DNA of 64,000 nt from a virus, in the IMG/VR virus record IMGVR_UViG_3300002026_000069, positions 36,161 to 100,160 of that record, one strand, 5' to 3'. This document shows positions 5,772-49,578 of the stretch, in pieces. The translations under genes were made by a program, and so were the position numbers. How positions within the stretch are numbered: position 1 is the stretch's first letter; each line of letters begins with the position of its first letter. Below the pieces are notes generated by a model. The model was not told where the DNA came from. It saw only the letters and a list, made by a program, of their open reading frames with translations, and made no database searches.

Positions 5772-7307
5772 GTGAAGCCATCTACCCTTGCTCAAAAGAT
5801 GTTGTCCCTTAAGGGTGGACCTTTAGACCTGAGAGGCAGACCATATCTCAAAGATGTATATGATTCAGATGCACAGAGAGTTCTCTTAAAGTTTGGCCGT
5901 CAGTCTGAAAAGTCTACTACTTTAAGTGCTAAAATAACATTAAATACAGCGTGCATCCCATACTTTAATACGCTGTTCGTTTCGCCTTCAGCTTCTCAGA
6001 CGAAAGACTTTAGTAATGATCGTCTAAATCAGTTCATGAAGAATAGTGATTATATTGTAGATAATCTATTCGACCAAACATGTACTGATAGAGTAGATCA
6101 AAAGTCTCTTTTAAATGGTTCGAATGTATATCTGAGATATGCATTCCATAACGCTGACAGAACCCGTGGTATATCTGCTGATCAGGTAGTTCTTGATGAG
6201 CTTCAAGATATTCGAACTGATAATATTTCGGTTATTGAAGAATCTGCGTCTCACTCTGAGAGAGGTTTAAAGGGTCATCCATATAAGTCTTTCATCTTCG
6301 CAGGCACTCCTAAGACTACGAATAACTCAATGGAGTTCTTTTGGCGTAGATCCTCAATGCGTGAGTGGGGTATTAAATGCGAAGGTTGCGGACATTGGGC
6401 ATTAGAACTCTCTACAAAGAACATTGGTAAAGAGTATCTTATATGCGAGAAATGCGGACATAGACTATATCCTCAAACTGGACGCTGGATTATCACGAAT
6501 CCAGGTGCAGCTATTGAAGGATATCATATTTGTCAGTTAGCCGTTCCTTGGCTTGATTGGCAAAAAGACATTCTATTCAAATTAAATACCTATCCTCAGA
6601 ATCGTTTCTATAACGAGGTTCTCGGGCTATCATACGATAGCGGTTCTAAGCCGTTAACCATGGCTCAACTTCGTCAATGCTGTAATCCTGATCGTAAGGA
6701 TTGGTGGAAGCATGATGAAGGATATATACCAAGACCTTTGTTTGCTGGGATAGATTGGGCTTTAACAGCAGAGAAGTCCTTTACTATCCTAACCATAGGC
6801 GCTTGGCTTCCATTCCCTGAGAAGTTTGTTATTCTCTATCAGAAGAAGTATGAGGCTAATCTAGACCTACTCCAGCAAATTGAAGATATTAAGCTCGTTT
6901 GCGACCAATACGGCGTAGATCTTATTGGAGCGGATTGGGGTGCTGGTGTTCATAGTAACTTAAAGCTTATTGAACACTTCGGTTCCGATAGGGTTGCTCA
7001 GTATTATAACTCTGGATCTCAGAAGAACCGCATTCAGTGGAATGATAAGCGTCAGATGTTTACGATTAGCAGAACAACGGTAATGACAGATTTGTTTAAC
7101 TATATACAAAAGTCTCGTATTGAATGGCCAGCATATGAAGTCTGTCAGGGATTCCTAACTGACTTCCTGAATGAAGATATCGAATACAATAAAGATGGTG
7201 TATTGTATTACGATCACAATCCAGATAGTCCTGATGATGCTATTCACTCGACTATGTATTGTATGTTAGCTGGAGAACTATTCTATACGAATAGGGGTAA
7301 TAGCTAA
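5772..7307 (+). CDS. terL: Terminase large subunit (GpA-like)
   Basis: GRQSEKST Walker A-like, VVLDE Walker B, GTP motif, two CxxC, AGIDW nuclease Asp, PDDAIHS. Confidence 0.9.
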   Translation: MKPSTLAQKMLSLKGGPLDLRGRPYLKDVYDSDAQRVLLKFGRQSEKSTTLSAKITLNTACIPYFNTLFVSPSASQTKDFSNDRLNQFMKNSDYIVDNLFDQTCTDRVDQKSLLNGSNVYLRYAFHNADRTRGISADQVVLDELQDIRTDNISVIEESASHSERGLKGHPYKSFIFAGTPKTTNNSMEFFWRRSSMREWGIKCEGCGHWALELSTKNIGKEYLICEKCGHRLYPQTGRWIITNPGAAIEGYHICQLAVPWLDWQKDILFKLNTYPQNRFYNEVLGLSYDSGSKPLTMAQLRQCCNPDRKDWWKHDEGYIPRPLFAGIDWALTAEKSFTILTIGAWLPFPEKFVILYQKKYEANLDLLQQIEDIKLVCDQYGVDLIGADWGAGVHSNLKLIEHFGSDRVAQYYNSGSQKNRIQWNDKRQMFTISRTTVMTDLFNYIQKSRIEWPAYEVCQGFLTDFLNEDIEYNKDGVLYYDHNPDSPDDAIHSTMYCMLAGELFYTNRGNS

Positions 7308-46723: not shown

Positions 46724-46792
46724 ATTTAATTTACATGTATTTAGATTATACCTTATCAATTGACAAAATTCAATAGCTATTAAAATAGTGTC

Positions 46793-47230
46793 ATGCTTAA
46801 ACTTTCAGAGTCCGCACTTGTTGAGAAAGGAATGAAATTTCTTTCAGCAAGAGGCGAACAAATATTCGGAAAAGTTAAACCTAAAGTTAGTGCCAGAACT
46901 GCATATACTCATGTAGCTAAGCCTGAAAAAGCTTATGAAGCTACTAAAGCTTTTGCAAAAGCTCCAGCTTTAGAAGGTAATCCAGCTACAAAAGTAATTG
47001 GATCACCAACTCCGCATACAAGGGGTTTACGCGGTCTTCCAATGAATCAGACTGCTGGATTTGCAAAGAGATCAACTCCTATTGCAAGACCAGTTCATCC
47101 TGAGTTACATCCAACTGAACCAGTTGGAAATACAAGAGATTGGTATCACGGGAATAATCCAGCGAACAGAGAGCCTACTGTATCAACATACAGAAAAATT
47201 AAAGGCGCTATCTCTAAGATTAATTCTTAA
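46793..47230 (+). CDS. Isolated + strand basic protein
   Basis: TTGACA-N15-TAAAAT ends 6 nt before the ATG; K/R/P-rich. Confidence 0.55.
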   Translation: MLKLSESALVEKGMKFLSARGEQIFGKVKPKVSARTAYTHVAKPEKAYEATKAFAKAPALEGNPATKVIGSPTPHTRGLRGLPMNQTAGFAKRSTPIARPVHPELHPTEPVGNTRDWYHGNNPANREPTVSTYRKIKGAISKINS

Positions 47231-47429
47231 TCTGCTGCTGACCGCCATTATCTGCTGGCGGTTCTGGAATCTCCATCGGAGCAGATTGGACATCAATTCC
47301 ATCTACTCCAACAGATACGCTATCGGAAGCTAGAATATTAATAGCTAGTGCGATAGAGATAAGAAGAACGCCGATTCCAACAAGCCACCATACTGCGGGT
47401 GGAATGCGACCAGTGATGTTATAGGGCAT
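47220..47429 (-). CDS. Single-TM small protein
   Basis: VWWLVGIGVLLISIALAINIL; TTGACT-N16-TAAACT leaderless promoter. Confidence 0.6.
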   Translation of the reverse strand: MPYNITGRIPPAVWWLVGIGVLLISIALAINILASDSVSVGVDGIDVQSAPMEIPEPPADNGGQQQIKN

Positions 47430-47465
47430 GGGCTTAGTTTATTTTTATAAACATGTAAGTCAATA

Positions 47466-48120
47466 CTAAAAAAGAGCATACCAAAGATCCTTCCGACGAA
47501 GCATAGCTTGCTTGTCTCTTTGGTACTGCTTCAATGACTCATTATCTAAGTACAGACAAAAAAGATCGTGCGTCGGAATAACTTATATAGTTATAGGACG
47601 CACGATTCAAAGACACAGAGCTATAATAAGGGTAATTGACCCTTTACGTTATAAATCGCATTGGATTGCTCCGCTGAATGTTTACAGTCTTTTTGGGTTA
47701 TTTTACACACCCGACACAGGTTAGTTTCTATAGGTAGCGTCTAACGAGGTTTAACTTCTACATCGCATACAGTCCCTTTCTTTGGTTAGAAAGACAAGCC
47801 AGAGGTATCTATGTCAAGCACGCGGAGTGCGTGTGATGAGGATAATATCATACCGTGCTACCCAGCATGATCGACACAGTGCAATAAGTATTTCTCATTC
47901 CCGCTTTAGTAAGCATATACGGGCGATCATACGACTTTATATAAAGTCATACTAACAAGGATGTTTCTGTAACTCCTTACTAAATCACAGAAGACACATG
48001 TTTATCAAATCCCTTTAGCATACATTTGGTAAGTCGTGTATGCTGGGTGGTCTTGAGTAGAAATATTCTACTCAAGAAATACTACTTTAGTCGCATGATG
48101 CGTTCCTTTCACTAAAGTTG
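47466..48120. ncRNA. About 650-nt highly structured non-coding region
   Basis: No credible ORF; many inverted repeats. Confidence 0.5.
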
Positions 48121-48124
48121 TTTG

Positions 48125-48217: not shown

Positions 48218-48430
48218 CGACAGCCTCCGTTGGGATTTGGCTCAATGATTCAACATTGATATCTTAACTCCGAAGAGTCAGAAACCTTACTCTGTCAATC
48301 TAGTTAAACTCAGATCCAACGATCTGATATTGTATTCGTTACTCCGATCATACAACGTGATCCTTGCCTAATTCTCAGGGGTAACAGGAAGTTTTCCCAA
48401 TAACTGGTTACTTCGTTTCGGCATAGCTGA
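48218..48430 (-). ncRNA. About 210-nt multibranch structured RNA between two tRNAs
   Basis: Ends pair (CAGCT/GGCTG); TTGGGA/TCCCAA; several hairpins. Confidence 0.5.
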
Positions 48431-48431
48431 A

Positions 48432-48506
48432 TGGTAGGCCCACATGGAGTCGAACCATGGTCTGAGCGTTATAAGCACCCGGCTCTAACCGTTGAGCTAT
48501 AGGCCC
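48432..48506 (-). tRNA. tRNA-Ile(UAU)
   Basis: Loop CTTATAA, GGGCCTA acceptor, CCA. Confidence 0.9.
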
Positions 48507-48959
48507 GCGATTGAAGATTTTGTTGAACATTAAGTCTTTCCACTAAGTCATCTAATTCTACCCATACAGCATACATATCAAAGACATAAGCATTTGATTC
48601 AGCGAACAAATCTTTATCGCTGTATGTCCATGTTTGTCTTAAGATAAACATTCCATTCCTCAATGGATGCATAATGTATGTATCATCAAGTCCGAGAGAC
48701 TTCTTTAAATTAAATGCTTCGGTTATCTCTGATTTTAGCTTCATATAAGTATTTGTAATATGCTATGAAGTCTTCAGCTACCCATCCAACTTCATAAGCC
48801 ATAACTTGTGTTCTTGGGGATAGAATTCTGCAATACCGCATCTTTCCACAGACACGATATCCAATTACATAATATGTATTACTAACAACACAAGGTTCAC
48901 AGAAAGTTATTCCAAGGTGGATTTTTGTTAAGATAGCATCCATGTCGTTCCAGACACCC

Positions 48960-49500
48960 GAATAGAGGAAAGGAGGAACTCTTCCGGTTTCCCGAGAGCG
49001 TACTGCTGTCAGGCATGCGATTTGTTTATTTGTCGCAACTTGCAGTTATTCACTGCCGAATCGGGATGGGACTCCAGACTTACCATTGAAGCAGTAAGAT
49101 ACCCATATTTGCACCTGTATGGAACTTAATCCAATTGAGGTAGCTCGCCACGCTTTTTTGCTGTATTTAGCTCTCTGTTACTACGACCCGAAAGTAGGCA
49201 TTGGTTTCTTTCCAACCAATAAAGTCACAGGTCGCTATTAAGCTAATGTCCTGTCATCAAGCCGTTCTTTCCTGCTAGTGCAGCATGGAAACGATTCACT
49301 ACATCGTCCTCATTGTGGCGCTTACTTGCCTAGTTACTGATTAGCCAGTTAAGGCCCAATTCACTAGTAGAGGTAATTCACATCAGCAGAGTTTCGCTGG
49401 ACACGGCCTTGATTTATCTTCCAGATGCTATTAACTGGTAATAACGAAGGGCGATCATATCGTGTCATTTTTACGAGAACCGAACTCGCAGGCAGCCTTG
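48960..49500 (-). ncRNA. About 540-nt large structured RNA candidate
   Basis: Starts just after the tRNA-Glu CCA; many hairpins and long-range helices. Confidence 0.6.
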
Positions 49501-49503
49501 AAA

Positions 49504-49578
49504 TGGTAATCCCGAAGGGAGTCGAACCCTTGTTACCAGAATGAAAATCTGAGGTCCTAACCGCTGGACGACGGGATC
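49504..49578 (-). tRNA. tRNA-Glu(UUC)
   Basis: Loop TTTTCAT, GGTTCGACTC, CCA. Confidence 0.9.

Follow-up and report, generated by a model that had tools for sequence, protein, structure and literature searches.

Does the ORF-free stretch that directly follows a tRNA-Glu gene in this phage genome encode a structured RNA, and if so, of which kind? Phage tRNA islands have yielded few large structured RNAs (GOLLD and ROOL); their function is unknown, and recent work has shown that they assemble into striking RNA-only cages. Every further family that occupies this genomic niche and is unrelated to them adds to the question of what the niche selects for. The element analysed here presents an unusual pair of features, a 56-nt frozen segment amid fast-changing surroundings and an overlap with the start of a small conserved gene. 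The initial annotation of the locus proposed an RNA of about 540 nt, large and structured, in a GOLLD/ROOL-like context and possibly of a new class.

Genomic setting of the ORF-free stretch

The window, i.e. the whole stretch of DNA that was analysed, covers the right-hand 64 kb of an IMG/VR virus record of 100 kb, with a completeness estimate of 55% for the record. The terminase gene (5772-7307, plus strand) and the head genes lie on the same strand, and from about 35 kb onwards a minus-strand block carries tRNA genes (13 according to ARAGORN vs 14 according to Rfam), several HNH genes and numerous small ORFs. Among cultured phages, Salmonella phage Arash comes nearest, its terminase being 31% identical; it has the same layout, a terminase followed by a minus-strand tRNA block. 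The AGGAGG ribosome site is nearly absent among the starts of about 40 window genes, while GGAA(C) or AAGGAA, placed 5-8 nt before the ATG, is recurrent in the genes of this phage; the rarity of AGGAGG in the window hints at a host that may make little use of Shine-Dalgarno pairing. The features surrounding the locus are, along the minus strand:

50088-50061, minus strand: promoter-like site, upstream of the HNH gene and of the ORF-free stretch
49557-50054, minus strand: HNH endonuclease gene, just 5' of tRNA-Glu
49504-49578, minus strand: tRNA-Glu, anticodon UUC, CCA encoded (ARAGORN; Rfam tRNA 59.7 bits)
48944-49503, minus strand: ORF-free, GC-enriched stretch of 560 nt, candidate RNA, beginning one base after tRNA-Glu
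48710-48943, minus strand: ORF77, with its start inside an invariant block described below

The HNH gene forms a mobile, free-standing nuclease cassette that brings a promoter-like site along and is inserted just 5' of tRNA-Glu. The first base of the ORF-free stretch is next to tRNA-Glu on the minus strand, which agrees with the initial placement of the candidate RNA directly 3' of this tRNA. No credible minus-strand ORF was found between 48944 and 49503: the sole frame is a read-through from the tRNA, and a search for protein products of the open frame that crosses from the tRNA into the stretch found none. The GC content of the stretch is 0.44-0.46 vs 0.32-0.36 in both flanks, 11 points higher over the full length, so that the reported enrichment over the neighbouring DNA holds. 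Raised GC is also a feature of tRNAs and was counted in favour of a structured RNA. We found no tRNA-like module inside the stretch (ARAGORN, Rfam scan), no intrinsic terminator or promoter-like site on its minus strand, no terminator between it and ORF77, and no repeat or paralog of any part of it elsewhere in the genome.

Predicted fold and chance expectation

All the minus-strand hairpins that had been listed by eye were located, at 49485-49490/49472-49477, 49303-49308/49290-49295, 49199-49221, 49042-49056 and 49016-49037, as was a CGG-GAAA-CCG hairpin at 48985-48994 (minus strand). For the minimum free energy of the stretch, the z-score is -0.88 (minus strand) and -0.10 (plus strand), the minus-strand fold being 10 kcal/mol more stable than the plus-strand fold. 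In sliding 150-nt windows, folding is no better than in the coding flanks, and z is about 0 across the 5' 400 nt. Judged by folding energy alone, the listed hairpins and complements are not beyond chance. The two long-range complements of the initial annotation are present (49431-49438 with 49345-49352, and 49315-49320 with 49146-49151), but they are at chance level: by our own count, a sequence of 560 nt is expected to contain about 2 perfect complements of 8 bp and about 37 of 6 bp. Similarly, the loop GGAAAGA (49207-49213) is complementary to that of hairpin E, listed further below, over just 5-6 bp, again at chance level. The helices predicted upstream of the 3' third are the following:

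49107-49503, minus strand: 5' and central part of the stretch, where helices are predicted only, with base-pair probabilities of 0.6-0.96
49485-49490/49472-49477, 49461-49466/49400-49405 and 49384-49399, minus strand: predicted helices of the 5' part
49290-49308, and 49183-49235 enclosing the hairpin 49199-49221, minus strand: predicted helices of the central part
49315-49320/49146-49151, minus strand: predicted helix, its 3' arm being reported outside the 5' and central part

Comparison with catalogued RNA families

We compared the locus with the known RNA families. In a search of the whole window against Rfam, nothing beyond the tRNAs reached the gathering score. A cmscan against Rfam, a check that had been suggested with the initial annotation, was run with all 4227 families, permissive filters and E ≤ 10 on 1.6 kb and on 574 nt and returned noise only; the stretch has no match to GOLLD, ROOL, tmRNA, RNase P or group I models. 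The GOLLD model, including its conserved 3' domain, gave no match in this whole-library search. A single-family search of the whole genome with ROOL (RF03087; 574 model positions, gathering score 99.1 bits) scored four candidates, none at E ≤ 10, and had no positive control, the control genomes being devoid of ROOL. With the group I intron model (RF00028), a whole-genome search found no match in the stretch at E ≤ 10, and the stretch sits between genes, not inside one, unlike a group I intron insertion. ARAGORN detected no tmRNA, and no Rfam match was obtained for tmRNA, RNase P RNA, 6S RNA or SRP RNA, nor with any riboswitch or cis-regulatory leader family; for the SSU rRNA model, no match was reported in the cmscan of the 574 nt.

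The context does resemble that of ROOL, with 560 nt placed directly 3' of tRNA-Glu in a cluster of 14 tRNA genes. The 560 nt available between the tRNA and ORF77 are shorter than GOLLD, which often exceeds 800 nt. The part of the initial proposal that concerned context is thus borne out, as the stretch belongs to a phage tRNA cluster and lies on the tRNA strand, but membership of GOLLD or ROOL is rejected, since no covariance model matched even at E ≤ 10. These searches show that the candidate RNA belongs to no catalogued family, and the suggestion that it may be a new class therefore stands.

Relatives of the stretch in read archives and assembled collections

Part of the stretch is contained in 20 runs from 17 studies of the read archive (microbial mat, freshwater, soil, sediment), 4 of the 20 runs being RNA libraries. 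Contigs of four runs (X3, X4, X5 and X12), with a depth of only 3-7, were compared with positions 48300-50200 of the window. In X3, one 2014-nt contig matches 48888-49558. This contig is without the HNH gene and has, in place of 529 nt (49559-50087), just 15 letters, which add two codons and a stop to the upstream ORF. It has 498 unalignable letters where the window has 48459-48887. The X3 alignment begins only at position 21 of tRNA-Glu; the relative may carry a 5'-truncated tRNA-Glu, or the contig may be imperfect. X4 and X5 each gave several shorter contigs, one of those from X4 corresponding to 48797-48991. Positions that a run left uncovered were given no weight. The divergence of X3 from the window varies sharply along the locus:

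ORF upstream of the HNH gene: 4.4%
49097-49558: about 5.6%, like neighbouring coding DNA
48994-49096: about 25%, with nine indels
48938-48993: zero
48919-48937: 9 of 19 bases

Many indels in the relatives are not multiples of three, no frame is open across the three variants, and a 39-codon ORF from 49016 has gained a stop codon in X3. At the level of its reading frames, the stretch is shown to be non-coding.

Relatives found only in read archives can yield covariation evidence where assembled collections hold no relative, as is the case here. Among INPHARED phages, blastn gave only a tRNA-Glu match, in a Bohxovirus. Searches of IMG/VR with a 22-mer of the invariant block and a 21-mer of tRNA-Glu found no usable homologue, a 16-mer gave 28 matches, all due to chance, and ORF77, the VWA protein and the terminase used as single proteins, as well as the ORF77 alignment, led to no usable homologous DNA. 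Both matches of a 20-mer in the JGI metagenomes were chance ones, and GTDB genomes contained no usable homologue when searched with a 28-mer and the ORF77 alignment. Terminase relatives of 83-85% identity were found mostly in Logan assemblies, and a further one stands at 70%; the one JGI contig in the 83-85% group is 10 kb long, too short to reach the stretch. The IMG/VR genome G001 (184 kb, 94% complete) encodes a terminase 95% identical to that of the 70% relative and about 70% identical to that of the window. It has no BLAST match to the stretch, and its tRNA-Glu is followed immediately by ORFs. In 49 records with about 40% terminase identity, BLAST gave only chance 20-nt matches, and a covariance model of the 3' domain, built from a single sequence (48938-49062), found only itself (E 2e-41) among 51 records. 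In Arash, which was outside the set searched with the covariance model, the annotation of the tRNA region leaves no comparable gap, and a BLAST/nhmmer scan that presumably included this region gave no match.

The lack of a copy in G001 and in the 49 distant records means that the element either occurs in a narrow lineage only or has diverged past recognition. The ORFs found directly after tRNA-Glu at the 70% terminase level suggest that it is dispensable within the phage group. A group I intron lies in the tRNA region of G001 (L120 18404-18658; G001:C1:112403-112657, plus strand), with an Rfam score of 61.6 bits vs a cut-off of 50. The genome analysed here has a weak group I intron-like match outside the window (C1:23661-23886, minus strand; 15 bits, E 0.012), far under the cut-off.

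Compensatory changes in the 3' third

For the comparative structure test, the X3 contig and two X5 contigs (X5a and X5b) were rebuilt by hand for 48938-49110: the substitutions and indels, listed site by site up to 49096, were introduced into the window sequence, and the test covers this region only. Each variant folds independently into the same hairpin row as the window:

49066-49106, minus strand: outer helix 49102-49106/49066-49070 around hairpin C (49094-49098/49079-49083)
49042-49056, minus strand: hairpin A, GCAGU/ACUGC, loop GAAUA, probability 0.96
49016-49037, minus strand: hairpin B, UGCGA/UCGCA, 12-nt loop
48991-49013, minus strand: hairpin D, CCUGACAGC / GCUCUCGGG in the window
48979-48987/48958-48967, minus strand: predicted hairpin E, with the 11-nt loop UUCCUCCUUUC
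48953-48957/48942-48946, minus strand: predicted hairpin F, its loop containing GGAAC and its stem the A and U of the start codon of ORF77

The sole change in hairpin A falls in the loop, at 49048. In hairpin B, the pair G49036-C49017 has become A-U in X3, X5a and X5b, and the three other changes are all in the loop. Hairpin D reads CCUAAUU/AAUUGGG in X3 and X5a: two pairs have both bases altered, one pair and a C.C mismatch have lost both of theirs, and a U.G pair persists. The stem of hairpin C changes from CUUAC/GUAAG in the window to UCAUG/CAUGA in X3 and CUUAU/GUAAG in X5a; as this hairpin was picked while viewing the variants, it was excluded from the main test.

The main test used the predictions made from the window alone for hairpins A, B and D and compared the observed changes with a random placement of the same number of mutations. 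In X3, 8 mutations hit stem bases of these hairpins and broke no pair, against a mean of 6.1 broken pairs expected (P = 1.6e-4); three pairs had both partners changed and a fourth had lost both. The same test gave P = 1.5e-3 for X5a. The variants represent two or three related lineages, and X3 and X5a have most of their changes in common, so that few of the events are independent. The U.G and G.U pairs in hairpins D, E and F and in hairpin C of X5a correspond to A.C mismatches on the plus strand, and these wobble pairs place the predicted structured RNA on the minus strand. The comparison shows that the hairpin row of the last 170 nt (C, A, B, D, E, F) is kept by selection. Covariation, which the initial annotation had put forward as a check, thus supports hairpins A, B and D within 48938-49110. 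The RNA of about 540 nt holds as a non-coding element with a selected 3' third; one architecture of that length, with long-range helices, is putative.

An invariant block that enters the start of ORF77

The downstream end of the hairpin row coincides with the segment of zero divergence:

48938-48993, minus strand: invariant block of 56 nt, with no difference listed in any compared contig

The block lies between the strongly diverged flanks 48994-49096 and 48919-48937. At the 25% divergence of the left flank, our own arithmetic gives a probability of about 1e-7 for 56 unchanged bases, which argues that the block is under constraint at the sequence level. Part of it can form the CGG-GAAA-CCG hairpin or else provide the 3' arm of hairpin D. 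The block spans the GGAAC and the ATG-GAT of ORF77 and ends exactly two codons into the gene, so that the conserved 3' end reaches 48938, past the boundary at 48960 proposed at the outset. The stretch is on the same strand as ORF77 and directly upstream of it, with the ribosome site within the conserved predicted structure. In our reading of the sequence, an alternative pairing of GUUCC (48976-48972) with GGAAC (48950-48946) would mask the ribosome site.

ORF77 has three relatives of 74-78 residues with 43-51% identity, and we judge it a real gene belonging to a family of proteins of about 75 residues. Its AlphaFold model (pLDDT 90) consists of a helix, three strands and a helix. No family was assigned by Pfam or PHROG, and the fold has no clear match in the PDB or BFVD. 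In VIA-align, all Z-scores are at most 3.8, below the noise level of the tool, and several PC4, Pur-alpha and Whirly-type nucleic-acid binders are among the rows; those of the PC4 and Pur-alpha type bind single strands and score a Z of about 3.5, no more than a lead. The N-terminus encoded by X3, MDHIILKINLGI, resembles an ORF77 relative of 51% identity that came from a profile-free search. Because of this likeness, the downstream gene in X3 is probably a diverged ortholog rather than a different gene. ORF77 accordingly follows the stretch in the window, in X4 and, as this diverged ortholog, in X3.

Possible evidence for transcription

The metatranscriptome X12 gave a single contig of 243 nt, at 49246-49484, which is the only one in the 1.9 kb compared; as an assembled RNA contig, it carries no end, strand or level information and may stem from DNA carried over into the RNA library. 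It lies inside the stretch and stops short of ORF77.

Interpretation of the locus

We tentatively favour, with a probability of roughly 0.45, a stand-alone and stable structured RNA that would form a new, lineage-specific family and be released from the tRNA-cluster transcript. The minus-strand RNA would be made as part of this transcript, and its 5' end would be set by the 3' processing of tRNA-Glu. The whole 560 nt would then accumulate as a stable RNA, by analogy with GOLLD, ROOL and the RNAs of the T4 tRNA cluster. The latter encodes small stable RNAs, species 1 and 2 (rnaC/rnaD), of about 120-140 nt and of unknown function, which are non-tRNA RNAs co-transcribed with phage tRNAs and freed by tRNA processing. 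An origin in a tRNA cluster is shared with the present element, which is much longer (560 vs 120-140 nt) and the processing of which would follow the same route. The invariant 3' block may double as the protected 3' end of the RNA and as the translation start region of ORF77, and our guess is that the RNA would bind a protein or a ribosomal partner through this block. The divergence of the 5' 400 nt (5.6% vs 4.4% in coding DNA) and their z-score of about 0 were counted against a structure that extends throughout.

The conserved 3' end enters the ribosome site and the start codon of ORF77, which makes a leader role a live rival, one that we regard as possible. The stretch would then be the structured 5' untranslated region of the ORF77/ORF91 message and the invariant block a translational operator, which hides or shows the GGAAC and the start codon, perhaps upon binding of a protein or of the upstream domain. 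An invariant block that runs from 48993 to 48938, through GGAAC and ATG-GAT, and ends two codons into ORF77 fits such a cis-acting translation element at least as well as a stand-alone RNA. Predicted hairpin F, the loop of which holds GGAAC and the stem of which takes in the A and U of AUG, and the masking GUUCC/GGAAC pairing point the same way, as do the absence of a terminator before ORF77 and the conservation of this real gene behind the element in the window, X4 and, as a diverged ortholog, X3. Phage translational operators, e.g. the MS2 replicase operator hairpin and the operators of T4 regA, gene 32 and gene 43, measure tens of nucleotides and bind a known protein, and their conserved hairpin includes the start codon or the ribosome site. 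Hairpin F as predicted is alike, but the element adds a putatively structured region of 500 nt upstream. Phage genomes being compact, 560 nt would also make a very long leader for a gene of 77 codons; the stretch has no match among riboswitch or leader models, the GC enrichment extends over all 560 nt, and the sole RNA contig does not extend to ORF77. The block could serve both roles, and the stand-alone RNA and the leader of ORF77 are therefore not exclusive.

A chain of stem-loops that is cut by host RNases into several small RNAs or processing hairpins would agree with the fact that the comparatively supported helices are all local hairpins of 15-41 nt and that the long-range complements are at chance level. 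We consider it unlikely, as the stretch has no internal promoters, terminators or tRNA-like modules and no part of it has repeats or paralogs in the genome. It is also improbable that we are dealing with a functionless spacer, such as a decayed gene or the remnant of a mobile insert, in which selection acts on the ribosome-site region of ORF77 only. The compensatory changes preserve three hairpins upstream of that site, GC is raised throughout, and the stretch is present in 20 runs of 17 studies; on the other side stand the lack of a match in the 70% relative and in the more distant relatives searched, the weak thermodynamic signal and the mosaic nature of a region where the HNH gene is not always present. 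That the models missed a highly divergent representative of a known family (GOLLD, ROOL, a group I or II intron, tmRNA or RNase P) is hardly probable at all: size and context are ROOL-like (574-position model) and G001 has a group I intron in its tRNA region, but cmscan with the whole library gave noise only at E ≤ 10, for 1.6 kb as well as for 574 nt, the ROOL and group I single-family searches gave nothing in the region, and ARAGORN found no tmRNA.

More speculatively, the 3' end of 16S rRNA consists of helix 45 followed by the CCUCC anti-Shine-Dalgarno tail, and we take the succession of a GAAA tetraloop hairpin, an 8-nt linker and CCUCCUUUC in an 11-nt loop, found in the invariant block, to resemble helix 45 and this tail. 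The likeness concerns about 30 nt only, was noticed post hoc and may be due to chance. It is a long shot that the 560 nt as a whole make up a single ornate RNA, representing a new class, the invariant 3' module of which mimics the 3' end of 16S rRNA as a decoy. Its targets would be the binders of the anti-Shine-Dalgarno tail, i.e. the purine-rich ribosome sites found in mRNAs or a protein that is ribosomal or involved in processing, a proposal that we hold just as loosely. If true, the decoy would represent a mode of translation takeover by a tRNA-linked RNA.

As a stand-alone RNA, the element invites comparison with the two large RNAs named in the initial annotation. GOLLD and ROOL occur near phage tRNA islands (10.1101/2024.12.08.627333). 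ROOL is a non-coding RNA of about 570 nt and of unknown function, encoded by phages and prophages and often found beside tRNA islands (10.1101/2024.12.08.627333). The element is similar to ROOL in its size, its non-coding nature and its phage tRNA neighbourhood. It differs in having no match to the ROOL model and in being confined to one narrow lineage, whereas ROOL is widespread; pseudoknots and self-assembly would set ROOL apart as well. GOLLD is a large phage non-coding RNA near or joined to tRNAs, with a 3' region more conserved than its 5' region (10.1101/2024.12.08.627333). The most constrained part of the element is also at the 3' end, but GOLLD is often longer than 800 nt, compared with 560 nt for the element, which has no Rfam match. 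Overall, the initial observation is partly confirmed, and its first interpretation partly supported.

Other spacers of the tRNA cluster

Between tRNA-Lys and tRNA-Ser of the same cluster, 1.4 kb (46724-48124) contain a single 69-codon minus-strand ORF and have a GC content of 41-45%. No ORF within this region has a Pfam or PHROG match, and the region is a candidate for a second non-coding RNA of the cluster. The segment 48336-48458, which comprises the spacer 3' of tRNA-Ile and the first few bases of this tRNA, is about 85% identical in X3, X4 and X5, with shared changes. The overlapping region 48218-48430 was flagged as another small RNA by the first reading of the sequence.
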